Shown here piece by piece: positions 13,195 to 57,577 of a stretch of 64,000 nt of DNA; the first letter of the stretch is position 1, and the number at the start of each line of letters is the position of its first letter. Source of the DNA: an uncultured Gammaproteobacteria bacterium (lineage in GTDB: Bacteria; Patescibacteriota; Patescibacteriia; Magasanikbacterales; GWA2-37-8); contig CAZHTA010000001.1 in the NCBI GenBank assembly GCA_964535515.1, positions 49,707 to 113,706 on the forward strand. Reading direction: 5' to 3'. Position numbers and translations under genes: made by a program. The notes under the pieces are model-generated. The model saw only the letters and a program-made list of their open reading frames with translations, made no database searches and was not told the DNA's origin.

Positions 13195-13367
13195 TCCCCT
13201 CATTCATCAAAATATTTTAATGAATAAGGGATGGGTGGTGTATGCGCCGGAAACACACACCCTTCCCCCCTAGGAAAGAACAGTAGCATTTCACACTGAA
13301 ACACGAACATTTCTCCGGCTATGTGAACGAGATTGAATGAGCGAAATTGAAGACCAGCGCGAACGCG

Positions 13368-15824: not shown

Positions 15825-16123
15825 CACCTCCTCCTTCTGGTTTGGGTTTCTTTCGCATACGCCTGTACGCAAACTGCGGACACCACTTACGGGGCGACCC
15901 TTTGTTTCTCACCTCCAACATCATCCCTCCTCCCGGTGTGAAAGTTGAGTGCTAGCCTAAAACGATCGAAACCGTCTATGTTACCTTTTATATATGCAAA
16001 ACTGCCTAAGCAGTTTGTTAGGTTGGAAAAGAACTAATCGTTTCTCCTCCTTTCAGCTTTGTATTCTACATATTTAATACTAAAAGTCAACCATTCATAC
16101 TAAAACTACGCACTTCTAAAACA

Positions 16124-37447: not shown

Positions 37448-37486
37448 CTACCAAGCAACCGGCCCTGTCCCGGTGGTAGTAGCGGT
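37448..37486. repeat. hairpin element H1 (direct-repeat partner of 38254-38296)
   Basis: ctaccaagcaaccggccctgtcccggtggtagtagcggtag versus ctaccgcctcaaagagagagctgaacggtggtagtagttgtag. Shared CTACC...CGGTGGTAGTAG. Confidence 0.5.
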
Positions 37487-38203
37487 AGTCAATTTTTGAA
37501 TTTCATTTACTATTTTTTCAAAACCAATAATTTTTAATTTATTCATCTCATCAACTGATAACAAAAAATTTAAAGTTGGTAATAATGATGGTACAGAAAC
37601 AAAATATTTTGACTCCTTAAATACTTTTTCTCGTTGTACAACTCCGCCAAAACCAACAAAAATACCCACTTCACTTGCCGCTTCCCAGTCAGCCACACTA
37701 TCACCCACCAACGCTAATCTTCCACCTTTTTGTTTTTCTTGCTGTAACACTTTTGTTTTACCGCAATCCTGAGCCAGCAACGAACTAGTATTAAAATTAG
37801 AAAAATTTTCATCCCCATCAAAAAATATCTCATTGGCGATAATACTGCTCTCGTCTAACCCAAGCTTTTTCGCCACCGGTAAAATCATTGGGTGAAAATT
37901 AGCTGACAAAATATATACCTGCTTATCTAAAGCACACAATATTTTTATTACCTCTACTGCTCCATCTACCAACAAACCAACACACTCCTGTGCCACAAGA
38001 TCGAGATCGTTTTTTGTCGGAGCAATCAACTGCATTTTTTCTATAAAAATATCAGCAAAAGCCACTTCGCCATCCATCGAACGTTTCGTCATAACAGCAA
38101 CTTTTTCTCCCACCCCCCGGCGCGAACCTAACAAATCCAAACTTTCCGCTTTAATCAAAGTGCTATCAAAATCAAAATATATTTTATTGATTGTTTCATT
38201 CAT
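37448..38203 (-). CDS. HAD-superfamily hydrolase (phosphatase)
   Basis: Motif I FDFDSTL, motif III/IV ...K...GDSVAD. The last about 14 codons (KLTTATTTGTGPVAW) are encoded by GC-rich island-boundary sequence. Confidence 0.75.
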   Translation of the reverse strand: MNETINKIYFDFDSTLIKAESLDLLGSRRGVGEKVAVMTKRSMDGEVAFADIFIEKMQLIAPTKNDLDLVAQECVGLLVDGAVEVIKILCALDKQVYILSANFHPMILPVAKKLGLDESSIIANEIFFDGDENFSNFNTSSLLAQDCGKTKVLQQEKQKGGRLALVGDSVADWEAASEVGIFVGFGGVVQREKVFKESKYFVSVPSLLPTLNFLLSVDEMNKLKIIGFEKIVNEIQKLTTATTTGTGPVAW

Positions 38204-40744: not shown

Positions 40745-41335
40745 TTAAAATTTCTTTACTCGTTGTACCGGTGGACGAACAGCAGGACGTGCTGTTGGTG
40801 GACGACGATCAGAAATCAAAAATTTGTTTTTCTCTTCAGCCAAATCAATAAAATCATCCACTGCTTCCTTTAGACGAGCCGAGGCAGTCCTACCAAAAGC
40901 TAAAACTTCTACTTGCTTACCTTGGTTAAACTTCAAATATTCTACCAATGGCAAATAATCGCCATCGCCAGTGACTAAAATGATTGCATCCAAACTAGCA
41001 GACAATCGAATAGCATCAACAGTTAAACCAACATCCCAATCCGCCTTTTTCTCACCACCGTAAAAGATTTGCAATGGTCGTTCTTTAGTTTCAATGCCTA
41101 GGTTATACAAAGCATCAAAAAATGGTTGTTCCTCTTTACCTTCGGTACGCACAACATAGGCAATAGCGCGAATAAGCTTGCGGCCAGCAATTGCTTCTTT
41201 AACAATGTTACCAAAATCAACTTTAGCACCATACAGATTTTTGGCGCTATAGTACATATTTTGTACATCAATAAACACCCCGACGCGTTGTTCAGGGTGT
41301 TTTAACGGATGATGTGTTTTATTCTTTAATTCCAT
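40745..41335 (-). CDS. NYN-domain (LabA-like, PIN-fold) protein
   Basis: VGVFIDVQNMYYS...DWDVGLTVDAI...ILVTGDGDYLPLV. Confidence 0.7.
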   Translation of the reverse strand: MELKNKTHHPLKHPEQRVGVFIDVQNMYYSAKNLYGAKVDFGNIVKEAIAGRKLIRAIAYVVRTEGKEEQPFFDALYNLGIETKERPLQIFYGGEKKADWDVGLTVDAIRLSASLDAIILVTGDGDYLPLVEYLKFNQGKQVEVLAFGRTASARLKEAVDDFIDLAEEKNKFLISDRRPPTARPAVRPPVQRVKKF

Positions 41336-41840: not shown

Positions 41841-42461
41841 TTAATTCCACATACACCACGGCAAAGCTATGCACGGACCTTCAGTCCCCATACTTGCACA
41901 CATACTAGAGAAATTCTCTAGCTGGCCAGTACACTTAAAGGCTGGGGCAACGGCCATCCCGTTCCATTCACATGCCGAACTCAAACATTCTGCCTGAAGC
42001 TTAGGGTTGCAAATAGTACTCACGCTAGTACCTGGTTTTATAGTACAAGTGTTAGCGGTTGGCACACCAGGATTAATACCCGAATTAACCTCTTCCGTCA
42101 CCTTCCCTGCCCCCACCTTCCCTAACACAAAATTCGTAATCGCATAAGCCATAGAAATGACTGCCAAACCGATAATTGCGGCTTCTAGTATGTTTTTGGC
42201 TTTGGTTACGTGTTCTTCATTGCCTTGGGCAGTCATCCAACGAATACCGGCGTATAGAACCAGAATAAAAAAGACAAAATAAACCAAATACAACGCCGTA
42301 TTGATAATTGTGGTTGTTACAGACTCTGGCGTATCATTTTTGCTATAGCTTGTCTTGCTAACAGTCTCATCTAATCCATACTGCGCCTTAACCGGTGTTA
42401 ATCCAAACAAAAAAACCGCTAACAAAAATACGGGCAAAAGTAATAAAAGATATTTATTCAT
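41841..42461 (-). CDS. secreted two-helix VirB2/TrbC-like (T4SS-pilin-like) family protein, paralog 1 (Cys-rich C-terminal domain)
   Basis: Signal peptide MNKYLLLLLPVFLLAVFLFG. Conserved hairpin LYAGIRWMTAQGNEEHVTKAKNILEAAIIGLAVISMAYAITNFV, shared with 8 paralogs at 44036-48910. Confidence 0.55.
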   Translation of the reverse strand: MNKYLLLLLPVFLLAVFLFGLTPVKAQYGLDETVSKTSYSKNDTPESVTTTIINTALYLVYFVFFILVLYAGIRWMTAQGNEEHVTKAKNILEAAIIGLAVISMAYAITNFVLGKVGAGKVTEEVNSGINPGVPTANTCTIKPGTSVSTICNPKLQAECLSSACEWNGMAVAPAFKCTGQLENFSSMCASMGTEGPCIALPWCMWN

Positions 42462-42557
42462 AATTAAATATTTACCCTTAAATAATACCATAACTTGATT
42501 TTTTTTACAAAACATACTATTATATTGACACTTACCCCAAATGGATATTGAATATTT

Positions 42558-42629
42558 GCCCTCATAGTTTAATGGATAAAACACGACCCTTCTAAGGTTG
42601 AGTTGTATGTTCGATTCCTGCTGGGGGCA
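42558..42629 (+). tRNA. tRNA-Arg (anticodon TCT), one T-stem mismatch (coordinates +/-1)
   Basis: gccctca-ta-gttt-aatggata-aaac-a-cgacc-cttctaa-ggttg-agttg-gtatg-ttcgatt-cctgc-tgggggc-a. Acceptor contains a G-U pair. Confidence 0.6.
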
Positions 42630-42690
42630 CGGGTAGTTGAAAAATTATATATATTAAGATATAATCTCAACTAAGATAAAGTCCTGGTAG

Positions 42691-42768
42691 GGGTGTCCTT
42701 GGTATAACGGTTATTACGTCGGTTTGTGGAACCGACAACACGGGTTCGACTCCCGTAGGACACCCCCA
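42691..42768 (+). tRNA. tRNA-His (anticodon GTG) with encoded G-1 and CCA
   Basis: g-ggtgtcc...gtcggt-ttgtgga-accgac...cgggttcgactcccg-ggacacc-c-cca. Confidence 0.85.
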
Positions 42769-42783
42769 CCCGGATTTTTTAAA

Positions 42784-42814
42784 AGACCTCGATTTTATTC
42801 GAGGTCTTTTGTTT
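42784..42814. terminator. terminator hairpin, near-identical copy of the rpoC terminator
   Basis: aaaagacctcgattttattcgaggtctttt versus aaaagaccccgattttttcgaggtctttt at 3497-3527. Overlaps the last codons of the glycosyltransferase gene. Confidence 0.55.
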
Positions 42815-43931
42815 TTAATATTTTCTGTAATATTTCTTCCACACCATTTCCAAATGATAATAGCTTTATTCTTTCTAATATTTTTATATACCCCTCTTCA
42901 TCAGAAAAAAAACTACTTACTGTTTGTGATAACCGCCAAATCCTTGGTTCATACTTGCCATACTTGTTGTCCACCACAAAATCACGATTGCCTTTCTCCT
43001 GTCCCCAGATATAGCTAGTTAAAATTATTGGACGACCAATAATTAAAGATTCAAAAACTACTGCCGGTCCCGCTTTGCCTACCACCAAATCTGCTGCCTC
43101 CATTAATTCTTCCACGTTCTCTGCAAAACCAACAACTGATAATATTTTACTTGGGTAACTGCTTCGTAAACGACTCGCTTGTTCAAAAAATTTCTGCTCT
43201 CGCCCACAAACGACAATTAAACAAAAGTCGTCAGACAAATCTACTAGTGAACGAACAACCTCTCCTCCTTTATACATTCCATCACCACCACCAGCCACTA
43301 AGACTATCTTTTTATCAAGCGGCAAACCTAACTTTCTCCGCATCTCCATCTTGTCCGATACACGCGTCTGCAAAAACTTTTTGTTTATCAACGGTGCTGT
43401 CACGAAAACATTCTTTTCTCCAACACCCTGCTCGAGGGCTATCTTTTTTGCTAATTCGGAAAAAACAAAATATTTAATCTCTTTTTCAAAAAACCAAACT
43501 CGTGGTACAGAAAAAGGATCAGTTACAACCGACCACACTTCTGTCTGTGGACTTACCTTTCTAACAGCCGTTAAAAGTGGCGGGGTAATAAAAAAATACA
43601 ACGAAATTACAATGTCAAATTTGCCCTCTTTTACTAGGCTATCCATGTGCTTTTGATTGCGAAACATGTTCACAAACAAATACATTGCCCAAGAATATTG
43701 CGAGATCCAATAAAACATCCACCACAGTAATATGAAATGATTGCTGTTAATCCACAACGCATACCCCTTGTGTAACAACCATTTAGACAACCTATTACTC
43801 TCAGCTCCAGCATCAACTAAAACAGACTGAGCTAACCCAGAATATTTTTCTTCTATCTCTTTGGCTAACGCTTTAGCAGCACCACTGTGCCCACCACCAG
43901 CATTAACGTAAAATATACCTATCTTTTTCAT
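42795..43931 (-). CDS. GT28-family diacylglycerol glycosyltransferase (MGDG synthase/UgtP-like)
   Basis: N-terminal KKIGIFYVNAGGGHSGAAKAL and C-terminal MurG-like domain. Confidence 0.7.
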   Translation of the reverse strand: MKKIGIFYVNAGGGHSGAAKALAKEIEEKYSGLAQSVLVDAGAESNRLSKWLLHKGYALWINSNHFILLWWMFYWISQYSWAMYLFVNMFRNQKHMDSLVKEGKFDIVISLYFFITPPLLTAVRKVSPQTEVWSVVTDPFSVPRVWFFEKEIKYFVFSELAKKIALEQGVGEKNVFVTAPLINKKFLQTRVSDKMEMRRKLGLPLDKKIVLVAGGGDGMYKGGEVVRSLVDLSDDFCLIVVCGREQKFFEQASRLRSSYPSKILSVVGFAENVEELMEAADLVVGKAGPAVVFESLIIGRPIILTSYIWGQEKGNRDFVVDNKYGKYEPRIWRLSQTVSSFFSDEEGYIKILERIKLLSFGNGVEEILQKILKTKDLE

Positions 43932-44035
43932 AATCGAAACAAACGAAAGAAATGAAAAAAATGATTATTCATTCCCAAACAAGTAAAAACTATATATTTC
44001 AAAACTCTCCTTTTCTAAGGAGAGTCTAACGATGA

Positions 44036-44500
44036 TTAAGGACAAGATAAACCATGACATTCAATCGTGCCACGTTGTTCTATATACTGAATATTTTCAT
44101 AATCAGTCCACCGGCCAAATACGATCTTTGCTACCATTAAAGTAATAGAATAAGCAGAAACAATAATTGCCAGACCAATAGTTGCTTGAAATAACAAAGT
44201 TTTTGATTTAGTTACCTTTTCTTCATTACCACCAGCCGTCATCCACAAAAATCCAGCATACAATGTTAAGACAATAAATATTATACCAATAAACTCTAAC
44301 GCTGTCCGAATAATATTAACAACAGTTACACGTGGATCTTGAGCTTCACCAAACCCTGCCCCTTTTTCTCCAGCAGCTGCCTGCAGCTGCTCAGCAATCT
44401 GAGCTTGAGTACTGCTTGCCGCAGCATTTACCAAAGAAAACGACAAAGCACTTCCCAAAAAGACCAAAGATATAAACAAAAAAACAAAAACCTTTTTCAT
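44036..44500 (-). CDS. VirB2/TrbC-like family paralog 2
   Basis: Signal peptide MKKVFVFLFISLVFLGSALS. Hairpin LYAGFLWMTAGGNEEKVTKSKTLLFQATIGLAIIVSAYSITLMV. Start moved to the internal ATG. Confidence 0.55.
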   Translation of the reverse strand: MKKVFVFLFISLVFLGSALSFSLVNAAASSTQAQIAEQLQAAAGEKGAGFGEAQDPRVTVVNIIRTALEFIGIIFIVLTLYAGFLWMTAGGNEEKVTKSKTLLFQATIGLAIIVSAYSITLMVAKIVFGRWTDYENIQYIEQRGTIECHGLSCP

Positions 44501-44507
44501 AAAACAA

Positions 44508-45008
44508 TTACTTAAAACCATTTTTAAACTCCTGCCAGCCACTACTCCAACCCCGACCAAAACCATCCCAAAAGCCTGTATCACTAGAAGGTGTAGCAGC
44601 ACCAACTGCTGAGCCGCTACCCTGAGCTCCACCAACCGTATACACCACCACAAAAGCCGTAATACCATAAGCTGCTACGACTATTATCAAACCGATAACT
44701 GCCATCTTTAAAATATTTGTTGCCTTAGTAACTTGTTCTTCGTTACCACTAGCAGTCATCCACAAAAACCCAGCATAAACTGTTAGAGCTAAAAAAAGTG
44801 TACCAACCAGCGTCATCGCTATCTTGATAATTCCGCCAACTTTTTCTGACAAAGCAGTCCCGCTCTCGTCGCTCTTATCATACCCAGCCTGTGCCGCAAC
44901 CTTGCCGGTCAACTCATTAATATTTGGTGCTGCTAAAACTGGTACAGCTATCAAAAAAACAAAAAGCGAGAGAAGGGCAGAGGTGATAATTTTACTTTTT
45001 AATTTCAT
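44508..45008 (-). CDS. VirB2/TrbC-like family paralog 3 (Gly/Trp-rich tail)
   Basis: MKLKSKIITSALLSLFVFLIAVPVLA...VYAGFLWMTASGNEEQVTKATNILKMAVIGLIIVVAAYGITAFV. Confidence 0.55.
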   Translation of the reverse strand: MKLKSKIITSALLSLFVFLIAVPVLAAPNINELTGKVAAQAGYDKSDESGTALSEKVGGIIKIAMTLVGTLFLALTVYAGFLWMTASGNEEQVTKATNILKMAVIGLIIVVAAYGITAFVVVYTVGGAQGSGSAVGAATPSSDTGFWDGFGRGWSSGWQEFKNGFK

Positions 45009-45024
45009 AAATTTATTTACTAAC

Positions 45025-45459
45025 CTACAAACACTGCTTAATTGTTGTACTACAAGTTTGACCACCCGAACAATCTGATGTGGTCGCACATGTTGTTGGT
45101 CCTGTCCCACCACCTGCCAACCTACCTGTAACAAAACTAGTGATTGCATAAGCGGCCATGGTAATAACCAAACCAATAATTGCAGCAATAATAATATTCT
45201 TTGATTTGGTAACTTTTTCTTCATTGCCCTGAGCAGTCATCCAAAGAATACCAGCGTAGACAGTTAAAATTAAAAATATTGTACCAACTAAAGCCAATGC
45301 ACCAGAAATAATAGTACCAACCGAAGTCTCTAAACTAGCTTCTAAGCCGGTTTGTTTGCCAACTTCCCCTAATTTTGTTGCCGCACTGTTCCATTGTGCT
45401 GAAGCAGAAAAAGGTAATAGCAACAGACAAACCGAAAGGAGTAAAAATATTTTTTTCAT
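45025..45459 (-). CDS. VirB2/TrbC-like family paralog 4 (Cys-rich tail)
   Basis: MKKIFLLLSVCLLLLPFSASA...VYAGILWMTAQGNEEKVTKSKNIIIAAIIGLVITMAAYAITSFV...CATTSDCSGGQTCS. Confidence 0.6.
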   Translation of the reverse strand: MKKIFLLLSVCLLLLPFSASAQWNSAATKLGEVGKQTGLEASLETSVGTIISGALALVGTIFLILTVYAGILWMTAQGNEEKVTKSKNIIIAAIIGLVITMAAYAITSFVTGRLAGGGTGPTTCATTSDCSGGQTCSTTIKQCL

Positions 45460-45472
45460 AATTTATAAAATG

Positions 45473-46060
45473 TTATTTACAACAAACATTTAAATCACCG
45501 CCTGTACAAAGACTTAAAGCACATTTATCTGAATTATTAGAGCATGCAGTACGTTTAGTTGATGTCGTGGCATCAGCAGCAAATGGCGGCAAACCACAAC
45601 TACCAATATCTTTACAAGTAAAACCAGGTTTTGTTTTCGCACATGTCTCTGCCGTCACCTCTCCAGCCGGTGTACTGCTAGTTTTCGTTCCCAAACTAGT
45701 GAAAACAAAATTCGCAATCGCGTAAGCACCGCCCACCAAAACTAGACCAATAATTGCTCCTTCAATAATATTTTTTGCTTTAGTGACTTGTTCGGTATTG
45801 CCCATTGCTGTCATCCAAGTAAAACCAGCATATAAGATTAAAACAAAAAAGATAATACCGATAAAAGACAAGGCAATATTAATCACTACACCAATAACAG
45901 CCGCCGGTGTTCCCATTTTAGCAATTTTTGTATCTTTTAATCCCGCCTTATCCGCTGCTACTCCAGCACCATAAGTAGGATCTGCTGCTGCCAAAACAAA
46001 AATTGGAGACAACAAAATTAAGGCGAGAACAAACGCAATCAATATTTTTTTAATATACAT
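45473..46060 (-). CDS. VirB2/TrbC-like family paralog 5 (Cys-rich tail)
   Basis: MYIKKILIAFVLALILLSPIFVLAAA...LYAGFTWMTAMGNTEQVTKAKNIIEGAIIGLVLVGGAYAIANFV...8 Cys in the tail. Confidence 0.55.
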   Translation of the reverse strand: MYIKKILIAFVLALILLSPIFVLAAADPTYGAGVAADKAGLKDTKIAKMGTPAAVIGVVINIALSFIGIIFFVLILYAGFTWMTAMGNTEQVTKAKNIIEGAIIGLVLVGGAYAIANFVFTSLGTKTSSTPAGEVTAETCAKTKPGFTCKDIGSCGLPPFAADATTSTKRTACSNNSDKCALSLCTGGDLNVCCK

Positions 46061-46171
46061 ATTTATCTTATATATTGGACACTGGAAAAAATACCTTCTT
46101 TCCACTAGCCAATAAAACTTCTTCCAACAGGGGGTTGCGCGCGCGAACCCCCTGTAGAAAGATAAAAACTA

Positions 46172-46645
46172 TTATGGGTTAAGGGTAGCTGTAACCAACT
46201 GGGTAATAACAAAGCTAGCTAAAGCGTAAGCGGACAAGATAATAGCTAAACCGATAATACCAGAAAAAATCCATTTCTTTGCCTCTCCTACTTTTTCTTC
46301 GTTACCACCAGCGGTCATCCAAGTGAAACCACCAATCAAGATGATAACAACTGCTACGATACCAAGTAAGCTCATGGCTGTACGAATAATACTAGCGATA
46401 GTAGTACGCACATCCTTAGAACCTAAACCGGTGTCAGCACCATAGTAAAGACCTAAAGAAGTAGCACTAATATCATTATTAGTACTAGCGGCAGCGGTAC
46501 ATGCTACTGGAGGTGTGCCTTGCATTGTCCCAACGGCTGCACCGCCAGTACAAACCGCAGCGCTCACCATTGATGGACTCATAACAATACCTAAACCTGC
46601 CACCAACATTACACTCAAAACGATAGTCGATAAAATTTTCTGCAT
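46172..46645 (-). CDS. VirB2/TrbC-like family paralog 6 (variable domain N-terminal)
   Basis: AAGGGGG SD before ATG at 46645. IGGFTWMTAGGNEEKVGEAKKWIFSGIIGLAIILSAYALASFV. Confidence 0.55.
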   Translation of the reverse strand: MQKILSTIVLSVMLVAGLGIVMSPSMVSAAVCTGGAAVGTMQGTPPVACTAAASTNNDISATSLGLYYGADTGLGSKDVRTTIASIIRTAMSLLGIVAVVIILIGGFTWMTAGGNEEKVGEAKKWIFSGIIGLAIILSAYALASFVITQLVTATLNP

Positions 46646-46706
46646 ATATTCACCCCCTTTCTTTGTATCAAAATTTATACAATAATTATAACACACCGAT
46701 TATTTT

Positions 46707-47261
46707 TTATCCAGACAATCCTTTCAACACTGCTGTCAAAAGCAGATAACTAGACAACACCACTACTGCACCTAAAATTGCCCAAATAATCATGTTTGAA
46801 CCAGACTTAATTTTTTCCGGACTACCAGCAGCTGTCAACCAAGTAATTCCACCATAAACAATCATCAAAAGAACAAGAGCACCCATTATACCAGTGGCAG
46901 TTTTAATAGCATTGCCAATAATAGCATTCACATCTGTTACATTTCCCTCCAAAGGATTACTTAATTTTACTACATTGCCAGAATCAGTTGGGGCGCTGAC
47001 AGTAGAACTAGGAGCGACTCCTGGCACCTCTTCATTGCACGACTCCGGCAAAGCTTCCACTGGCCCACCACTAGTACAACCTTCTGGACAAACCGCTTCC
47101 ACTTCTGCTGCCGCACCAAAAGAAGCACATTTTTGACCATTAACTCGTTCAACTTCAGACAAAGAACTACCAGAACAATCACAAAAATAAATTGCAGCAA
47201 AAGTAGTCGCCGGAAAAAATACACACCCAACAATTAATAAATATAAAAATAATTTTTTCAT
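46707..47261 (-). CDS. VirB2/TrbC-like family paralog 7 (Cys-rich N-terminal domain)
   Basis: MKKLFLYLLIVGCVFFPATTFA...VYGGITWLTAAGSPEKIKSGSNMIIWAILGAVVVLSSYLLLTAV. Confidence 0.5.
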   Translation of the reverse strand: MKKLFLYLLIVGCVFFPATTFAAIYFCDCSGSSLSEVERVNGQKCASFGAAAEVEAVCPEGCTSGGPVEALPESCNEEVPGVAPSSTVSAPTDSGNVVKLSNPLEGNVTDVNAIIGNAIKTATGIMGALVLLMIVYGGITWLTAAGSPEKIKSGSNMIIWAILGAVVVLSSYLLLTAVLKGLSG

Positions 47262-47264
47262 ATA

Positions 47265-48236
47265 TTACCCAGCAAATTTAAAAAGAATAGTAACGATCGC
47301 ATAACTTGCCAAAACCACTATCACCCCAAGCGTGCTCCAGATAGCAATTTGCTTTGCCTTACCAACTCTTTCACTACTACCCGCCGAAGTCATCCAAAGC
47401 ACGCCGGCATAGACATAGAAAAGCAACAACAAAGACCCCATGGTAAACGTCATAGCGGCAATCATTCTGCCAATAAAATCGTTAACTCCCGCTGCGCCTG
47501 TTTTAAATTTCATTGGATTAAGTGTGCTAGCAGCTTCGGCCTTAAGTATTTTAGCAGTGTCAATAACTGGAGCGGTAGGTTTTTCTATTATCGACTCAGC
47601 ACTACTACAAGGCTTTATCCCGTTAGAAAAAAGATCAGCACAATTCCCAGCAAACTCTTTCCAACCACCCCACGAAGCGCTGACTGTTGAATTTGGATCG
47701 TCGCAAGTTAAAAAATCACCAAGATTGCTCCCGGCAGGAATTATCCCTGACTCAATCTGACCGAGAACTTCTGGACGAATAAAAGGAACATGTGGCGGGG
47801 CATCCTTACATGAGGCATCTGAGTTGTAACAACACGCATTTTTTTGCACAGCTTCTATTTGTTTTTTAACACCATTCGCACTCGCCTTACTAAGTTTAAC
47901 CAAAAAACCAGTACTATTATTTAATTGGTCTGCTTTAGCACAGTTTTCATCGTCGTTACCAACTGCCGCAGCATAAAATCCAGGTACATCAATACATTCT
48001 CCAGATTCTGAAGAATAGCCTCCTTTTAAATTATCCGAATAGATACCTGACTCTAAAGAACAATCCGCCGGTTGATTAGTTGTAATATTTAGACAGATTT
48101 CGCTTGGCTCATCACCTTCATAGTAAACACAACAAGCGCCAGCGGCGGCGGCATAATCATAATGAGAAACAAACAAATACCCAGATAAAAAAATTACAAA
48201 GAAAGACAAAAACTTAAAAGAAAAAAACTCACGCAT
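47265..48236 (-). CDS. VirB2/TrbC-like family paralog 8 (large Cys-rich N-terminal domain, 323 aa)
   Basis: About 16 Cys in the ectodomain, then VYAGVLWMTSAGSSERVGKAKQIAIWSTLGVIVVLASYAIVTILF. Confidence 0.5.
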   Translation of the reverse strand: MREFFSFKFLSFFVIFLSGYLFVSHYDYAAAAGACCVYYEGDEPSEICLNITTNQPADCSLESGIYSDNLKGGYSSESGECIDVPGFYAAAVGNDDENCAKADQLNNSTGFLVKLSKASANGVKKQIEAVQKNACCYNSDASCKDAPPHVPFIRPEVLGQIESGIIPAGSNLGDFLTCDDPNSTVSASWGGWKEFAGNCADLFSNGIKPCSSAESIIEKPTAPVIDTAKILKAEAASTLNPMKFKTGAAGVNDFIGRMIAAMTFTMGSLLLLFYVYAGVLWMTSAGSSERVGKAKQIAIWSTLGVIVVLASYAIVTILFKFAG

Positions 48237-48241
48237 ATATT

Positions 48242-48910
48242 TTAACTAGTCAATTGAAACTCTGGCTTTATATTAACCGCCTCACCCAAGAAACTTACTA
48301 ACATATAAGCACCAAACATGATAACCAAACCAATTACTGCTGCCACCAAAATATCTGTACCTTTCTTTACTTTCTCCGAACTGCCTTGAGACAAGATCAA
48401 TGTAAACCCACCATAAACAAACATTACCAAAGCCAAAGCACCAATTACACCAAACAAATACCGTGACAGCTGAATAAGAAAAAATACAAAAATAGAAACA
48501 TCCATACAAGGATCATCTGCCACTTTCGAGAACGATCGCGCCAAGAGACATTCTGGAATTAATTGGCTAGCCACTCCTCTGAAACCACTTTTAGTAGCAG
48601 CCGTTCCTTCTAAATCTCGAGAGGCTTCCCATTTATTTTTTTCGTCTTTACATAACTGTTCACCCGTTGCTCCAGCAAAAAACTTACAACTTCTTTTTAA
48701 TCCTTCACCCTGCTTTGCTAAACAAGTAGCTTCATCTGCTGCTGTTTCACAACTACTACTAAACAAAGAATTGTCTTTAATATTCTCTGGCGTTGCTTTG
48801 CTTAAATCACTCCCACAAAAACAATAATCAGCCGCCGAAACTAATGTGGGGGTTAAGAAAAACATCAACCCAATTAAACCTCCTACTAACCAACTGGTTT
48901 TTTTAATCAT
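48242..48910 (-). CDS. VirB2/TrbC-like family paralog 9 (Cys-rich N-terminal domain)
   Basis: MIKKTSWLVGGLIGLMFFLTPTLVSA...VYGGFTLILSQGSSEKVKKGTDILVAAVIGLVIMFGAYMLVSFL. Confidence 0.5.
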   Translation of the reverse strand: MIKKTSWLVGGLIGLMFFLTPTLVSAADYCFCGSDLSKATPENIKDNSLFSSSCETAADEATCLAKQGEGLKRSCKFFAGATGEQLCKDEKNKWEASRDLEGTAATKSGFRGVASQLIPECLLARSFSKVADDPCMDVSIFVFFLIQLSRYLFGVIGALALVMFVYGGFTLILSQGSSEKVKKGTDILVAAVIGLVIMFGAYMLVSFLGEAVNIKPEFQLTS

Positions 48911-48912
48911 AC

Positions 48913-50310
48913 TTAGATAGTTTGATTAATCTTCGCCGCAGCATCATTAAGAAGAGTTTGACGCCACTCCGCCTGACCTTTATCCTCTGGCCCAGGTATC
49001 AACCAAGCGCTTAACAAATCATTGATTGCTCTATTCGCTGCTTCATAGTTACTACCACGATACCAGTTCTCAGCAATCAAGACATCGGAAACAAATGGTA
49101 ATAATTCTAACTTTTCTTTTTGAGCAGAAATAAAAGCACGAAGTGCGGTTGGTCTACCCGTAGCATCTAAATAATCCTTGGTAGTTTTTGAATGAGTCAA
49201 GAAATCAATTAAGTTCCACGCCTCGTTTTGATTCTTTGATTTACCAACAACGGTTTGAACCCAGTAGTTTGCAACATTAACTGGCTTTTCTGGATTCAGC
49301 TGAAACAATGGTAACACCTCAAAGTTTAACTGTGGTGCCCGTGCTTTTATCTGTGGATAGTTGTAACTATAACCAAAGAAAAATCCAACTGACCCATTTA
49401 CAAATTGATCTAACGCATTACCCATTTCACTATTCCAAGAATAAGTATCACGTGTCGAATTCGCATAATCAGTATAAAAATTTAACACTGCCATTGCGGG
49501 TGTTTCATCCCCTCCGCCCGTAGTTAAATTAAACAAAGCCTGTCCGCTTTTGGCAGAAAAAGCAACGCCACTCTGGCGGAACAATGCATACAAAATATCA
49601 TCTGCACCATTAATATTACTTCCTGTGCCAAGAGCCGTACCAGACTGTACAATCTTGTTGGTTTTTTTGTCGTACTTATTAATTTTCTTTACTGCCGCTT
49701 GAAACTCTTCCCAATTCTTTGGTGGTTCTGGTACACCTGATCGATCTAAAATATCTTTATTGTAATATATAGCCATGGTATCAAGTGACAATGGCAAACC
49801 ATATATCTGATCACCAATCACCACATCGTCTTTAACTACTTTTACATATTCTCGATCTAGGCCAAGCAAATTAATCATTGGCCGTGGGGTGTTGTTAACA
49901 ATCGTCTCTGTACTAAACTGTCCTTTCTGAACAACAACCGTAGTGTCATTTACTGACGCTGGCATTGGCACCAATTTACTTTGAAATGTTTTTAACCAAC
50001 GATTTTTAATAGAGATAATATCCGGACCACGATCTTCTGCTAACGCTTCAACTAAACGAGGATACAATTCAGCCTCACGAATCTGACGAATATTTACTGT
50101 AACCTGTGGACGAGTCGCATTAAATTTTGCTACCGCTGCACGCAAAGCATCCACATCATCAAAAACCGTCCAGTATTCCAAAGTGACTGGCTTAGTTAAC
50201 TGTCTCTCGGCTTGCGTAATCCCTTTACAACCAAATCCAAGAAACAAAAACAAACCAGCAATCATAGAAATTGCTAGAAAAGAAATTGATATTTTATTTT
50301 TCATAACCAA
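48913..50310 (-). CDS. ABC transporter substrate-binding lipoprotein (SBP family 1, sugar-type)
   Basis: Lipobox FLGFGC, SBP_bac_1-like length and composition. Confidence 0.75.
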   Translation of the reverse strand: MVMKNKISISFLAISMIAGLFLFLGFGCKGITQAERQLTKPVTLEYWTVFDDVDALRAAVAKFNATRPQVTVNIRQIREAELYPRLVEALAEDRGPDIISIKNRWLKTFQSKLVPMPASVNDTTVVVQKGQFSTETIVNNTPRPMINLLGLDREYVKVVKDDVVIGDQIYGLPLSLDTMAIYYNKDILDRSGVPEPPKNWEEFQAAVKKINKYDKKTNKIVQSGTALGTGSNINGADDILYALFRQSGVAFSAKSGQALFNLTTGGGDETPAMAVLNFYTDYANSTRDTYSWNSEMGNALDQFVNGSVGFFFGYSYNYPQIKARAPQLNFEVLPLFQLNPEKPVNVANYWVQTVVGKSKNQNEAWNLIDFLTHSKTTKDYLDATGRPTALRAFISAQKEKLELLPFVSDVLIAENWYRGSNYEAANRAINDLLSAWLIPGPEDKGQAEWRQTLLNDAAAKINQTI

Positions 50311-50336: not shown

Positions 50337-51206
50337 TTATATCACACTCTTCAAATATTTCCTAAACTCTTTGGACAATTTCGGATCACGCAAAGCAAAA
50401 TCTACGTTGGCTTGCAAGTATCCAAGCTTCGAACCAGTATCATAATATTTACTATCTACTACTTTCGCGTAAATTGGACGTTTCTTAAGTAGTTTAAAAA
50501 TTGCATCTACCAACCATAATTCTCCACCCTTACCTACTTTTGTTTTTTCTAACATTTCAAAAATATCTGGGGTTAAAATAAAACCACCCAAACTCGCAAT
50601 TCGTGAAGGGGCTTTCTCTGGTCCTGGTTTTTCAACAATATTCTTTACTTTTAAAACTGATTTTTCCACTTCTACCCCATCGATCACACCATACTTGGTT
50701 GTTCCTTCATCATTAACCGGATAACCAGTTAAAACCGGATCACCATATTTTTCAAACACCTCAATCAATTGTTTAAGCTGAGGTTTCTTTGGTGCATAAT
50801 GGAACTCATCACCCCACATAACCGCAAAAGGTTCGTCACCAATCACATTCTTAGCACACATTACTGGTGTACCATTACCATATGGACCTTTTTGACGGAT
50901 AAAGATAAAATTAGCCAAATCAGCGATTTTCTTTACTTCTTCAGCCATCTCTCCCTTCCCTTGCTTCTTTAACCAATTCACTAATTCATAGTTAGGACTA
51001 AAATGGTCTTCCACTGCCCGCTTTGATGGACCAGTGACTAAAATAATATCGGTAATACCTGATCGTACTGCATCTTCTACTACATATTGGATAATTGGCT
51101 TATCAACCACCGGCAACATCTCTTTAGGTGAAGCTTTGGTAGCTGGTAAAAAGCGCGTTCCTAAACCAGCAACCGGAATAACCAACTTACGAATCGTTTG
51201 TGACAT
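50337..51206 (-). CDS. galU: UTP--glucose-1-phosphate uridylyltransferase
   Basis: KLVIPVAGLGTRFLPATKASPKEMLPVVDKPIIQY. Confidence 0.9.
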   Translation of the reverse strand: MSQTIRKLVIPVAGLGTRFLPATKASPKEMLPVVDKPIIQYVVEDAVRSGITDIILVTGPSKRAVEDHFSPNYELVNWLKKQGKGEMAEEVKKIADLANFIFIRQKGPYGNGTPVMCAKNVIGDEPFAVMWGDEFHYAPKKPQLKQLIEVFEKYGDPVLTGYPVNDEGTTKYGVIDGVEVEKSVLKVKNIVEKPGPEKAPSRIASLGGFILTPDIFEMLEKTKVGKGGELWLVDAIFKLLKKRPIYAKVVDSKYYDTGSKLGYLQANVDFALRDPKLSKEFRKYLKSVI

Positions 51207-51293
51207 AAAGTAATATTTATATATCTATGGTATTAAGTATAACAAGTACCAGACTATATTTCAATAACTAAAAAAGAACCAATAAACAAGCCC

Positions 51294-51349
51294 TTGAAAA
51301 AAGTCTGAAAATGTGCTATAATACACCCGTTGGTAAATCAATTTACCAA
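51294..51349 (+). promoter_or_regulatory. promoter TTGAAA-17-TGcTATAAT followed by a 9-bp-arm palindrome ttggtaaat-ca-atttaccaa at +1..+20
   Basis: Read directly. Extended -10. The palindrome is an operator-like site. Confidence 0.5.
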
Positions 51350-51398
51350 TTTAATCCTTTTTTACAAAGGAAAATATTATTTACTAATTAACAATCAT

Positions 51399-52763
51399 AT
51401 GGCGTTCGGAGCAGAAAATCGATATAGCCCACCAGGTGCTGACAAAAAAATATCACCGGCAAAAGGTCTACATGAAGTCGACTCTTTTGATGCTATGCTC
51501 GCAGAACAACTGGCTGATGCCAATGCTGAGTTACATTCAAAAACAGCGGCAGGCAGAGCAGAAGCTCCGGACGAAAGACGTGCAGCAAATATAGCTTCAG
51601 TTGAAGGCCAAACACCAGCTGTCAAAACTTCAGATAAACCACAACGACTACGCTCTGTTGATGCTTTTGACGCACTATTAGCAGAACAGCTCGCTGACGC
51701 TAATGATGAGCTACACGCAAAAACACCAGCTGGCAAAGCTGAGGCAGCAGAGGCAAAACGCCTTGCAGGCATAGCTGCAGCCAGAGAAGCGATAAAAAAA
51801 TCACGTGCTGACGGTACATATGAAGCTAAGAAAGCCGAATTTGCAGCAAAACAAGCTTCACGTGGGTCAAATTTTGAAAAAGGAGCACCATTATCACCAG
51901 ATAAACAAGCTTCATTAAACAAAGAAACTAATATTTTACAACAAGGCGATACACCTCAGAACGAGAAACTTGCTTGGGACGATGCTGAAAGAATAGCCGT
52001 CTCACAGCAACGCAAAAATAAATCAGAATCAACAGGAGTTGATCGTGCGGTTATGTTACAAAATCAATTAGATGAGCTTAATAGCAAAACTGCTGATTTG
52101 TTAGGTGAAGAAATTAAAAAAATGAGATTTTGGGTTATTAATAAAGCAACAAAAGCTCATAAAAATTTAATGGATACAAACAGTGTATATGCTGAGTTAG
52201 TATCTAGACGAGAAAAAATCACAAGTAACATCGGTGTAATTGAGAGCCCAGGTTTACGTTTAAACACTACACCTGAAGTTAACTTATCTCAACCAGAACC
52301 AGTCGTCGAACAAGCGCCAACACCTACTGCCAGAATAGAGCGCTCCGTTTTACCACCATCAATTTCTAATCCAGAAAGAACTGCACCAACCCTAAAATTC
52401 TTAACTAACGCTGAAAAGAAAATTATAGCGACAGACAAAGTCATGCGTCCAGAAGACACAAATCAGATTAGACTGGTTAAGTTGCTCGCAAGACTTAAAG
52501 AAACTTTCAACATCGACATGGATGAACAAGGAAAAATGGGGTTCTTTTCTCAACGTAAGTTTAATAAACTATATGAACAACGGATACCTGCATTTGAAGA
52601 ACTTACTGATAAAATCGTAAAAACACAAACTGACCTTGCTTTAGAAAGAACACCTAAGGAAAAATCGCTAAGAATATCAAATGTGATCGCAGCTGCAGCA
52701 GACAGTGGCAGATCAAACAAAATTGCCGATACCGGCAAAGGTACTATGAGCGGAAAAGCATAA
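51399..52763 (+). CDS. hypothetical protein with tandem 30-aa repeats
   Basis: VDSFDAMLAEQLADANAELHSKTAAGRAEA / VDAFDALLAEQLADANDELHAKTPAGKAEA. The ORF-track GTG start at 51330 coincides with the TSS and was rejected. Confidence 0.5.
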   Translation: MAFGAENRYSPPGADKKISPAKGLHEVDSFDAMLAEQLADANAELHSKTAAGRAEAPDERRAANIASVEGQTPAVKTSDKPQRLRSVDAFDALLAEQLADANDELHAKTPAGKAEAAEAKRLAGIAAAREAIKKSRADGTYEAKKAEFAAKQASRGSNFEKGAPLSPDKQASLNKETNILQQGDTPQNEKLAWDDAERIAVSQQRKNKSESTGVDRAVMLQNQLDELNSKTADLLGEEIKKMRFWVINKATKAHKNLMDTNSVYAELVSRREKITSNIGVIESPGLRLNTTPEVNLSQPEPVVEQAPTPTARIERSVLPPSISNPERTAPTLKFLTNAEKKIIATDKVMRPEDTNQIRLVKLLARLKETFNIDMDEQGKMGFFSQRKFNKLYEQRIPAFEELTDKIVKTQTDLALERTPKEKSLRISNVIAAAADSGRSNKIADTGKGTMSGKA

Positions 52764-52861: not shown

Positions 52862-54223
52862 CTAATTCAACGCCTCCCAACTAATTAAATTGTACTCTGA
52901 TCCTACTGGAAAACCTGGCGGCGGTCCATAGGTTAAATTGGCATCATAGGTAGAGTTGGTAGCTTCATAACCTGACACTACTGACCCGCCGCCTGATACC
53001 CAACTCCATGTCCAAAGACCATTGGTAATTATCGAGCCATACACCGTTAAACTATCCTTCGTATTACCTGGGTAATAGTACCTCTTAGCTGCACCATTCT
53101 GAGCCAAAATCACTGCATTGATCTCCAAAATATTTGGAGAATTATATGGTATTAAAACATTTTTCTCAGCCATCAAACCCAAACTGTGATTTCCGTCTTT
53201 TGCTAAGTAAGTTAAATTACCGTTAATAATAATCGACTTGCCTGTTGCTGTACCAACTGTCGCTCTACCATTAACCACTCCATCTACCCATACCGTATCC
53301 TCTACATATATATATCCATTAGACGGCATATCATAAGTGGTAGCAGTGCCTAAAGTTTTGATATCAATACAAAAAGTATAGTATCGATTGTCATTAATAT
53401 CTTTCCCGTTATAACAATTTGTCGTATTAACTTTGTAAGCCTTAACATGGCCATCGCTAGTAAACTCCAACCGCCAACCCTGTTTACCCGAAGATGAAAG
53501 ATATATTCCACCACTCTTTGACCCTGTTTTTACATCCGCCAATTTAACAGTCACAGCCGAAAAATCCTTAGATGGCACAGGAAAACTCCAATAACTTTGG
53601 GGTGTACCATCACCCCAAATGCCCGGCTTTTCCACATTGCCACAACCAATATGCGCCTTACAAATATAGGTTGGAACAGCTGAGGTAATTTGTGCGTCCC
53701 CTGTCCCATCAAATCGAATACCACTGTTAGCATGCATTTTCCCGTGAACCACTTCATCATCTCCAATCCAAACATCACCGTTCGTTAAAAAAGCATAATC
53801 AGTCAAAGCCGGGAAGCCTACTCGAGCACGAATAATACGTTTACTACTCTCTTGTATATTTAACCAACCAGTCGATTCAATTGTTACCACAGTGGAACCA
53901 GAGGGTGGTGGTGTAACTACTAAAGAATATTGACCAATAACATTCCCGTCTTTATCTTCATAATCATGCACATACGGACCCGACTGACCAGTGCCATCAG
54001 TATAATCAGTTTTATTATGCGCCAAATGCCAACGGTAGTAGTTAACACCAGCTTCCGCAATCTGAAAAGCCATTTCACGATTGTGTTTATGAGCTGAAGC
54101 CCTGTTTTCTAAAATTGCATAACCCACCACCCCGCCAACAAGAAGCGTAAAACTAATCGCCCCAAACACCATAACAAACAAAAGCATGGAACCACGATTA
54201 TCTTTTTTAAATTCCCTTATCAT
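52862..54223 (-). CDS. large pilin-like protein with N-terminal hydrophobic anchor (PilX-like minor pilin candidate)
   Basis: KDNRGSMLLFVMVFGAISFTLLVGG then a 420-aa Gly/Thr/Asn-rich ectodomain. Last gene of the pilin operon. Confidence 0.5.
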   Translation of the reverse strand: MIREFKKDNRGSMLLFVMVFGAISFTLLVGGVVGYAILENRASAHKHNREMAFQIAEAGVNYYRWHLAHNKTDYTDGTGQSGPYVHDYEDKDGNVIGQYSLVVTPPPSGSTVVTIESTGWLNIQESSKRIIRARVGFPALTDYAFLTNGDVWIGDDEVVHGKMHANSGIRFDGTGDAQITSAVPTYICKAHIGCGNVEKPGIWGDGTPQSYWSFPVPSKDFSAVTVKLADVKTGSKSGGIYLSSSGKQGWRLEFTSDGHVKAYKVNTTNCYNGKDINDNRYYTFCIDIKTLGTATTYDMPSNGYIYVEDTVWVDGVVNGRATVGTATGKSIIINGNLTYLAKDGNHSLGLMAEKNVLIPYNSPNILEINAVILAQNGAAKRYYYPGNTKDSLTVYGSIITNGLWTWSWVSGGGSVVSGYEATNSTYDANLTYGPPPGFPVGSEYNLISWEALN

Positions 54224-54228
54224 ACTAA

Positions 54229-54837
54229 TTAATTACTTTTCAAATTCCTAATTTCTACCTTTGATTCAATATTAAAAGGCACTGGTGCCACATTTGGCTT
54301 TTCTTCCAACATTAATTTAATTCCTACCATTCTAACCAATGTAACATTTATCGGTGCAGACATTGGCGTACCAGATACACTCGAATAATTTTGATCATAA
54401 TAATAAAAAACTGAAGTGGTAGCATTGGCCACATCATTAACGGCAGTGGTTATCACTTCATTTGCCGGATTATACGTCAAAGGATTACCTGTTGGTTTAG
54501 TAATTCCTTTTTTAAGTAACTTACCCGATAAAAAATATCTTACTCGCTCACGCCAAGAATCAGAATCGATGTTACTGTAAAATACAATCGTGCTCGTATT
54601 GGCAACCTCCAATGGATATGATCCAATACTTGAAGCATTTGCACGCCGTAATTCGTTAACAAAATCTTGAACAATTTTTCTGCCATCGTTTTGCGTTGAC
54701 AATTGTTCCCACACCACATCACGTCCGTGTAAACCCCACAAAAGAAGCTCGACAATACCGGTGATTAAAAGCAAAAATATACCAATGGCAACTAGCACTT
54801 CAACCATGGTAAAACCCCTTTTGTTTAATCTAATCAT
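54229..54837 (-). CDS. type IV pilin-like protein (prepilin-type N-terminal cleavage/methylation domain)
   Basis: KRGFTMVEVLVAIGIFLLLITG class III signal peptide. Confidence 0.7.
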   Translation of the reverse strand: MIRLNKRGFTMVEVLVAIGIFLLLITGIVELLLWGLHGRDVVWEQLSTQNDGRKIVQDFVNELRRANASSIGSYPLEVANTSTIVFYSNIDSDSWRERVRYFLSGKLLKKGITKPTGNPLTYNPANEVITTAVNDVANATTSVFYYYDQNYSSVSGTPMSAPINVTLVRMVGIKLMLEEKPNVAPVPFNIESKVEIRNLKSN

Positions 54838-54841
54838 ATTA

Positions 54842-57448: not shown

Positions 57449-57512
57449 CCGAGGCCTTAGAGCCTCGGTGTTTTTTACCAAACAAAAAACCACGTGAATA
57501 ACCAACGTGGTT
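57449..57512 (+). terminator. two tandem terminator hairpins
   Basis: ccgaggccttagagcctcgg+T-run and aaaaaaccacgtgaataaccaacgtggtttt. Confidence 0.55.
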
Positions 57513-57577
57513 TTAATATGAACTTATACACATCACCCCAAATCAAAAAATGTGATATAATATCTTTACCACAAACT

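Follow-up and report, generated by a model that had tools for sequence, protein, structure and literature searches.

Described pilin arrays and the locus examined here

In known type IV secretion system (T4SS) pili, a single small pilin forms a homopolymer with a VirB5 tip, and the genes lie inside the virB/tra operon. To our knowledge, and within a limited literature search, no VirB2 homolog is known to carry an ectodomain. Here we analyzed a stretch of 64 kb (contig CAZHTA010000001.1 of assembly GCA_964535515.1; hereafter the window) from an ultra-small groundwater bacterium taken as a member of Magasanikbacteria (Patescibacteria, class ABY1), which contains nine paralogous genes for secreted, VirB2-like pilins. 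These genes are numbered W_1 to W_9 in operon order, counted from the upstream gene for a solute-binding protein (SBP), with plausible start codons chosen. In our judgement, there is about an even chance that the products of this locus build a single heteropolymeric surface filament of the conjugative-pilus (VirB2-like) type, which would bear hypervariable host-binding modules and would be assembled by a T4SS encoded elsewhere.

Tandem arrays of VirB2-like pilin genes in Patescibacteria were published in 2023–2025, and this kind of feature is known. In Southlakia epibionticum, a series of pilins inside the T4SS gene cluster is essential (Wang et al., 2023; PMC10633639), and a 2025 review regards this system as the first T4SS of a monoderm that might form a pilus (PMC12857230). 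A survey that applied PF04956 and PF18895 to 3,035 genomes of Patescibacteria reported 441 "VirB2 arrays" of 2–11 genes in 383 assemblies, with a mean identity of 25% and a maximum of 54% (Quinonero-Coronel et al., 2025; PMC12102498). According to the same survey, PF18895-type pilins are a hallmark of Patescibacteria, which bears out the enrichment in the candidate phyla radiation (CPR) mentioned in the first-pass annotation of the window, made from the sequence alone. The survey also found PF18895 genes adjoining virB4 in 1,135 assemblies of other Patescibacteria.

The array examined here resembles these published arrays, including the "Sec-secreted array" of TM7x (PMC12102498, PMC10633639), in its PF18895 genes, its tandem and divergent arrangement, its chromosomal location in a monoderm CPR bacterium and a context without relaxase. 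Under the published definition (2–11 pilin genes, tandem or one non-pilin gene apart, with low identity), eight genes form a tandem array; W_9 lies slightly farther off than the definition allows, because not one non-pilin gene but two tRNA genes and a glycosyltransferase gene stand in between. However, the array here never adjoins virB4 and is fixed behind an orphan SBP gene. Each of its nine positions is occupied by conserved orthologs. One of these stands out as a candidate major subunit, and the other eight are modular, with large, hypervariable and mostly Cys-rich ectodomains. Moreover, the published arrays are mainly from Microgenomatia and Saccharimonadia (PMC12102498), whereas this one is from Magasanikbacteria. 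What is new here is a set that keeps its order throughout the lineage, lies apart from VirB4 and adjoins an SBP gene, with one recognizable candidate for the major subunit and eight modular, hypervariable members.

Three other systems are comparable. The VirB2/TrbC/TraA pilins (PF04956; F, pED208, and T pili) share the long signal peptide, the hydrophobic hairpin (two helices, about 70 aa in all) with its short polar loop, and the prediction that both termini are outside, but the nine paralogs fall below the PF04956 threshold and match the VirB2 profile weakly, albeit in register. Modular type IV pilins such as PilB of Streptococcus sanguinis (PMC8179133) are alike in concept, as a small polymerization module is joined to a grafted functional or adhesive module, and one abundant major pilin is likewise encoded with several minor modular pilins at one locus. 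Their fold and assembly pathway are unrelated; they have a class III signal peptide and N_methyl motif, whereas a Sec signal peptide and a helical hairpin are found here. Finally, all nine proteins align over nearly the full 80-position model of the Mbov_0395/MMCAP2_0565 "pilin-like conjugal transfer protein" of Mycoplasma integrative and conjugative elements (ICEs) (NF045849; E-values from 3.6e-8 to 0.017), the context of which is of the monoderm mating-pair-formation type MPF-FATA, as for Patescibacteria VirB4. However, the scores (15–33 bits) lie under the 40-bit equivalog cutoff, and the Mycoplasma gene is single, small and inside an ICE, whereas the array here is chromosomal.

Organization of the array and architecture of its proteins

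The nine paralogous open reading frames (ORFs) are all on the minus strand, with eight within 44036–48910 and one at 41841–42461, where the first-pass annotation had placed them. A hidden Markov model (HMM) of the shared core retrieves exactly these nine proteins from the window (E-values of 1e-29 to 1e-35), with the next best match at 0.33; this recovery is far beyond chance. The genes and the signals around W_4 are as follows (bit scores are for PF18895).

48242–48910, minus strand: W_1, modular pilin, 222 aa; 34.3 bits; N-terminal ectodomain of about 105 aa with 8 conserved Cys, then the hairpin
47265–48236, minus strand: W_2, modular pilin, 323 aa; 21.8 bits (below cutoff), core HMM E-value 9e-30; N-terminal ectodomain of about 225 aa with 12 Cys
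46707–47261, minus strand: W_3, modular pilin, 184 aa; 37.0 bits; N-terminal ectodomain containing Cys
46646–46727, minus strand: expression signals of W_4, namely two promoter-like sites (promoter scan) and the strong Shine-Dalgarno sequence AAAGGGGGTGA (duplex with the anti-Shine-Dalgarno)
46172–46645, minus strand: W_4, bare pilin and candidate major subunit, 157 aa; 44.6 bits, the best of the nine
46120–46162, minus strand: GC-rich stem-loop right after W_4 (inverted repeat and fold), candidate terminator or mRNA stabilizer
45473–46060, minus strand: W_5, modular pilin, 195 aa; 22.4 bits (below cutoff), core HMM E-value 3.5e-33; Cys-rich C-terminal ectodomain of 68 aa with 8 Cys
45025–45459, minus strand: W_6, pilin, 144 aa; 36.5 bits; short C-terminal Cys knot; mature protein with 4 Cys
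44508–45008, minus strand: W_7, pilin, 166 aa; 39.0 bits; Gly/Trp-rich C-terminal tail without Cys
44036–44500, minus strand: W_8, pilin and last of the tandem run, 154 aa; 26.1 bits; short C-terminal tail with 2 Cys
41841–42461, minus strand: W_9, modular pilin, 206 aa; 32.9 bits; Cys-rich C-terminal ectodomain of 86 aa with 8 Cys

Intergenic spacing inside both pilin gene runs is operon-like (3–16 nt), with a 61-nt gap ahead of W_4. W_9 is a separate transcription unit, set apart by the glycosyltransferase gene and by two tRNA genes on the plus strand. Its start at 42461 is preferred because a longer ORF (start at 42584) would run into the tRNA-Arg gene.

Three hydrophobic segments are found in each protein, a signal-peptide-like one at the N-terminus with an AxA-type site and two further helices of transmembrane length. 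Therefore, the hairpin formed by these two helices is distinct from the signal peptide, and the reservation of the first-pass annotation that it might be a cleaved signal does not apply. In the multiple alignment, the core motif YAG(F/I)xWMTAxGNEEKVTKAK...AIIGL...AYAI, which had been read as common to all nine, is clean in W_4–W_9 and present in a diverged version in W_1–W_3 (YGGFTLILSQGSSEKVKKG and similar). Identity among the paralogs is 22–58% over the core and 20–45% over the full length. The extensions, which had been attributed to every paralog, are N-terminal in W_1–W_3 (about 105–245 aa between the signal peptide and the hairpin) and C-terminal in W_5–W_9 (23–86 aa, that of W_7 being Gly/Trp-rich and free of Cys), and are essentially absent from W_4, which has a short low-complexity segment. 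Mature proteins W_1 to W_9 have 8, 12, 6, 2, 8, 4, 0, 2, and 8 Cys residues, all even numbers.

In the AlphaFold2 models, the W_4 hairpin (helices 79–111 and 116–155) has a predicted local distance difference test (pLDDT) value of about 90. The W_1 model has an overall pLDDT of 80.6, with about 90 for its hairpin, and the ectodomain is confidently modeled as a small alpha/beta domain for which no recognizable structural relatives were found. Among 51 homologs of W_1, C30, C32, C54, C63, C75, C87, C121, and C135 are invariant or nearly so. After cleavage of the signal peptide, both termini of the hairpin would be extracellular, as we infer from the predicted topology, and therefore ectodomains could occupy either end.

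Family membership

PF18895 (T4SS_pilin) is matched by all nine proteins, six of them above the gathering cutoff of 26.6 bits. The three just below the cutoff (W_8, W_5, and W_2) are unambiguous paralogs of the others by the core HMM (E-values ≤ 1e-29), and all 56 aligned homologs match PF18895 as well. The proteins also show the architecture that characterizes this family, in which a signal peptide at the N-terminus precedes a hydrophobic helix-loop-helix (about 70 aa). Relatives in the databases come from metagenome-assembled genomes (MAGs) of Magasanikbacteria and other Patescibacteria, some of them named "pilin" by NCBI, and nearly all of the 243 database homologs of W_6 are annotated with PF18895. 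Membership in PF18895 is solid, and the prospect raised in the first-pass annotation that no family HMM would match has fallen away.

For comparison with VirB2 proper, a reference alignment was made of nine authentic VirB2/TrbC proteins taken from annotated plasmids. Against this alignment, hhalign gave a probability of 32% (P = 4.8e-4) over 79 columns that keep the AxAQ cleavage site and both helices in register, and against a single VirB2 the probability was 28.6%. The control hairpin of ATP synthase subunit c gave 0.15% (P = 0.4). These comparisons weakly support homology to VirB2 proper, which is plausible and unproven by sequence. None of the nine proteins matches PF07963 (N_methyl, class III signal peptide), a motif that is present in neighboring genes at 54229–56641, and tblastn searches with W_4 and W_6 against 72,556 plasmids gave no match.

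Conservation of gene order and divergence of ectodomains

Homolog look-ups and a scan of species-representative genomes with W_4 yielded about 50 related loci, mostly labeled Ca. Magasanikbacteria or Magasanikiibacteriota; the closest relative in the W_4 scan has 77% identity. Every full-length locus contains 8–12 PF18895-type genes on one strand. When these genes are assigned to positions by their best match to W_1–W_9, the order 1-2-3-4-5-6-7-8-9 is found in nearly all of 46 species loci; occasionally position 6 is duplicated, or position 4, which reaches four copies. The surrounding synteny is invariant: [FtsK], two N_methyl genes, the gene for a 453-aa protein, GalU, SBP, the pilin genes, (glycosyltransferase), the last pilin gene, S15, NYN, and polynucleotide phosphorylase (PNPase). 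Wherever a locus covers that side, the first pilin gene directly follows the SBP gene, whose stop codon is 2 nt ahead of the first pilin start in the window as well as in the loci examined in detail. As a side observation, third-party annotation (TPA) MAG records with this Patescibacteria locus (L008, L009, L013, L014, and others) are often titled "uncultured Gammaproteobacteria bacterium", evidently as a placeholder or through mislabeling.

The placement of the extension (N- or C-terminal) is also conserved by position. Positions 1–3 have N-terminal ectodomains that extend to medians of 136, 237, and 87 aa from the start codon, with median Cys counts of 8, 12.5, and 4; position 2 orthologs range from 123 to 415 aa. 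Positions 5, 6, and 9 have C-terminal Cys-rich domains of up to 408 aa and 52 Cys, and W_9 orthologs are 115–536 aa long. At positions 7 and 8 the extension is C-terminal, usually lacks Cys and exceeds 20–35 aa in about half of the members. Even Cys counts are found in 92–100% of members.

Comparison with the locus L008, which is close to that of the window in PNPase (90.5% identity), GalU (89.6%), and SBP (87.5%), gives 73–94% identity for the pilin cores and 10–45% for the ectodomains. Extension lengths also differ, with 92 aa in the window and 243 aa in L008 for the C-terminal extension of W_9, and 92 and 214 aa for the N-terminal extension of W_3. Most orthologous pairs of ectodomains are undetectable by BLAST. 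The dN/dS ratio of variable versus conserved segments, proposed as a check in the first-pass annotation, is unusable because synonymous divergence (dS) is saturated or undefined for most segments, and nonsynonymous divergence (dN) alone was compared; relative to the closest relative, dN is 0.05–0.21 for the cores and 0.37–0.76 for the ectodomains. These sequence comparisons indicate genuine hypervariability between genomes for the ectodomains of the eight modular paralogs, which evolve far faster than the hairpins. The variable repertoire envisaged in the first-pass annotation does not describe the array correctly, as the nine genes are ancient positional orthologs in fixed order across about 46 species. 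Pfam scans of the largest ortholog ectodomains (proteins of up to 536 aa, 52 Cys) gave no domain beyond PF18895. Two sources of variation were considered and rejected: shuffling of ectodomains between positions, as cross-position BLAST matches are rare and short, and phase or antigenic variation by DNA rearrangement, as there are no long repeats or invertible elements and core repeats between genes are 60–71% identical.

A candidate major subunit

The core of W_4 is the most conserved of the nine, with a median identity of 81%. Between genomes with about 80% identity in GalU and about 70% in PNPase, it is 82–95% identical, compared with 35–79% for the other cores. Position 4 orthologs are bare, with a median length of 134 aa and a median of 0 Cys. 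W_4 is also unique among the nine in its strong Shine-Dalgarno sequence, GGAGGTGA or GGGGGTGA, with a duplex energy of about -18 kcal/mol at every locus. Within the window, the anti-Shine-Dalgarno duplex of W_4 is -18.0 kcal/mol versus -12.6 or weaker for the 32 other genes, and across the related loci, 0% of the genes in the other eight position groups are under -10 kcal/mol. Furthermore, the 90 nt at the 3' side of position 4 genes have a median minimum free energy of -30.8 kcal/mol versus -12 to -14 kcal/mol elsewhere, the last gene of the tandem run excepted; the region 3' of W_8 orthologs is frequently structured in relatives. Relative to the closest relative, dS of the W_4 core is 0.34 versus about 1 or more for the other cores, which, at 66 codons, counts as a hint and not a result. 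W_4 is the most often duplicated paralog in other genomes. From these sequence features, W_4 looks like the major subunit. Positional orthology in about 46 species, together with a bare member bearing the expression signals of a major subunit, therefore argues for a fixed multi-subunit structure rather than a set of interchangeable variants.

Position 4 duplications were seen in L006/L041, L044, L048, L013, L033, and L035, where most copies retain the strong Shine-Dalgarno sequence and one more divergent copy is usually without it. The window as a whole hardly uses Shine-Dalgarno sequences. Of 33 genes, 30 have a duplex weaker than -7 kcal/mol, and the other three are W_4 (-18.0), a HAD hydrolase gene at 37448–38203 (-12.6), and the NYN gene at 40745–41335 (-9.3). 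An A/T-rich "AATAT" precedes many start codons in the window.

Proposed filament and alternative explanations

In the proposed filament, the signal peptide would be cleaved and the hairpin would insert with both ends outside the membrane. W_4 would polymerize as the major subunit, and the eight modular paralogs would be incorporated at low stoichiometry at the tip, at the base or sparsely along the shaft, with disulfide-stabilized hypervariable modules that may recognize structures on the host-cell surface. Assembly would be driven by a VirB4–TrsD–VirB3 T4SS such as related genomes encode at another locus, as the family context suggests. The orphan sugar-binding lipoprotein would act at the same cell–host interface, and GalU and the UgtP-like glucolipid enzyme may act there too; that GalU and the glycosyltransferase supply a lipid or glycan of the pilus is speculation.

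Regarding the T4SS, none of VirB4, VirB6, and VirD4 is encoded in the window, in agreement with the first-pass annotation for VirB4 and VirD4. Large ORFs near divergent arrays were considered as VirB4 candidates and rejected, as they encode a lectin, a type I restriction-modification enzyme, PBP1, a DUF2079 protein, and RecJ. Five array-bearing genomes (L010, L022, L042, L043, and L045) are listed as VirB4-positive (Table S1 of PMC12102498), which points to T4SS machinery elsewhere in those genomes. In one of them (GCA_000992085.1; L010), VirB4, TrsD, and VirB3 are coding sequences 794–796, and a single VirB2, not associated with VirB4, lies about 400 coding sequences away as coding sequence 380 (Table S3 of PMC12102498). 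This genome carries at least eight genes of the array, while the survey records one VirB2. Arrays far from virB4 thus seem to be under-reported, and HMM surveys centered on virB4 neighborhoods would under-count them.

Several observations weigh against the filament. Neither VirB4 nor VirB6 is encoded within 10 kb of the array, be it in the window or in about 46 relatives, the search of the source genome being confined to the window. The cutoff of PF04956 (TrbC/VirB2; 27.9 bits) was not reached by any of the nine proteins, the best scores being 18.4 (W_4) and 14.7 (W_1), and among 56 family members, one matched PF04956 at E ≤ 0.01, no better than unrelated transmembrane families. A profile search of the PDB returned no pilin, merely spurious designed "Pizza" propellers. 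At the sequence level, homology to bona fide VirB2/TrbC lies under accepted thresholds, and the VirB2/TrbC-like identity assigned in the first-pass annotation holds at the level of PF18895 and not of PF04956. Ectodomains of 100–400 aa may be sterically incompatible with the homopolymer packing of the known small T4SS pilins. In addition, the unrelated S15, NYN, and PNPase genes are equally syntenic, so that the linkage of the array with SBP, GalU, and the glycosyltransferase may partly reflect a frozen gene order in this lineage.

Some of these observations would fit non-polymerizing surface-display proteins, in which the hairpin is a membrane anchor for Cys-rich ectodomains that act as adhesins or receptors, and there is no pilus. 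Such display, which we consider unlikely, would agree with the outward topology of both termini, the missing assembly ATPase gene near the array, the weak homology to VirB2, and ectodomains of up to 408 aa, which are unprecedented for T4SS pilins. However, a mere anchor would not require a W_4 core that is conserved above the level of GalU, nor a bare member that bears the strongest expression signals. The strict retention of the loop motif WMTAxGNEEKV in nine paralogs and about 46 species, as well as the proximity of PF18895 genes to virB4 in other Patescibacteria (PMC12102498), also speaks against a mere anchor. A different alternative retains the filament, or a channel, and dispenses with the T4SS; it would be assembled by Sec/YidC insertion and self-assembly or by the neighboring type IV pilus-like genes, and would serve nutrient capture together with the SBP. 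The position of the SBP gene, the constant adjacency of the N_methyl genes and the gene for the 453-aa protein, and the absence of VirB4 from all neighborhoods are in its favor. However, the nine proteins have no N_methyl motif or class III signal peptide, which makes assembly dependent on prepilin peptidase unlikely, and the PF18895 family is linked to T4SS elsewhere. Given the equally syntenic S15, NYN, and PNPase genes, linkage alone is weak evidence for partnership with the SBP or type IV pilus genes, and we find this alternative quite improbable.

Tandem divergent paralogs with variable exposed parts could also be an antigenic or phase-variation repertoire of interchangeable pilins, with one or few expressed at once. 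Such a role has been proposed for VirB2 paralogs in Bartonella and Anaplasma, and the published survey suggested this analogy (PMC12102498). Strict positional orthology with a conserved N- versus C-terminal architecture in about 46 species, the lack of long identical DNA tracts, invertible segments, and recombination repeats, the limited exchange of ectodomains between positions, and the tight spacing within two gene runs all conflict with such a repertoire, for which we see hardly any room.

A broader claim may be attached to the filament, although we make it tentatively and with considerable doubt. These proteins may be the first "modular" conjugative-type pilins, forming a VirB2-like monoderm pilus of one major and eight minor subunits with hypervariable disulfide-rich modules, uncoupled from the T4SS ATPase, coupled to an orphan sugar-binding lipoprotein and flanked by a GalU/UgtP-like glucolipid pathway that possibly supplies a pilus lipid; the structure would be a host-recognition or uptake organelle of episymbiotic CPR bacteria. 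In the sole genetically tractable Patescibacterium, the T4SS and pilin array are essential and their role is unknown (PMC10633639, PMC11665869). The lineage examined here offers a natural dissection, with an identifiable candidate for the major subunit, a constant partner in the SBP, and eight modular subunits, each specific to its position, in which the exposed parts appear to evolve several-fold faster than the scaffolds. The ideas that the pilus is a host-recognition device, that ectodomains set the host range, and that VirB2-type filaments may diversify by grafting modules onto a polymerization core, as type IV pili do, become testable.

Neighboring genes and other features of the window

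The glycosyltransferase, galU, sugar-binding protein, and type IV pilin genes that the first-pass annotation had reported beside the array were all located by Pfam searches. The neighboring features are as follows.

42558–42630, plus strand: tRNA-Arg(TCT), between the glycosyltransferase gene and W_9
42692–42768, plus strand: tRNA-His(GTG), between the glycosyltransferase gene and W_9
42795–43931, minus strand: UgtP-like glycolipid glycosyltransferase (MGDG_synth and GT28 C-terminal domain; Pfam), between W_8 and W_9
48913–50310, minus strand: orphan solute-binding protein (SBP_bac_1; Pfam) with a lipoprotein-like N-terminus (translation)
50337–51206, minus strand: GalU (UTP-glucose-1-phosphate uridylyltransferase; Pfam NTP_transferase, NCBIfam galU 322.8 bits), heading the conserved block
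52862–54223, minus strand: conserved 453-aa protein (69–84% conserved), no Pfam or NCBIfam match
54229–56641, minus strand: two N_methyl (type IV pilin-like) genes (Pfam), always syntenic with the array
57494–59848: FtsK with the full FtsK domain set

The SBP gene and the pilin genes are probably co-transcribed. No ABC permease or ATPase gene was found near the SBP gene, and the SBP appears to be an orphan. GalU, with a promoter-like site upstream at 51264–51236 (promoter scan), precedes the SBP gene in every related locus in which that side is visible. The glycosyltransferase matches the NCBIfam model for diglucosyl-diacylglycerol synthase (E-value 1.8e-39) under the equivalog cutoff. Most related loci have a glycosyltransferase gene in the interval between W_8 and W_9, on one strand or the other; about eight loci showed none at the array position (BLAST, E < 1e-8). 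Its product is 24–35% identical between the window and L002, L004, L006, and L013, where PNPase is about 70% identical, which indicates that, judged by sequence identity, it diverges or gets replaced much faster than its neighbors.

One of the type IV pilin-like proteins (599 aa) combines N_methyl with CarboxypepD_reg, the commonest architecture of modular type IV pilins, which is illustrated by a Magasanikbacteria protein in PMC8179133. Between the gene for the 453-aa protein and GalU lies an Ala/Glu/Lys-rich ORF of 477 aa (51330–52763, plus strand) that has no Pfam match and contains an internal repeat of about 30 aa, SVDAFDA(M/L)LAEQLADAN.ELH.KT.AG.AEA, in copies about 60 aa apart. This interval is empty in most relatives and contains other inserts in three (L008, L040, and L044), and it looks like an insertion hot spot. 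Finally, a GC-rich patch at 13347–15940 (58.5% GC versus a background of about 40%) contains one ORF of 834 aa (13368–15872, minus strand) without a Pfam match, and looks like foreign DNA or an assembly chimera.

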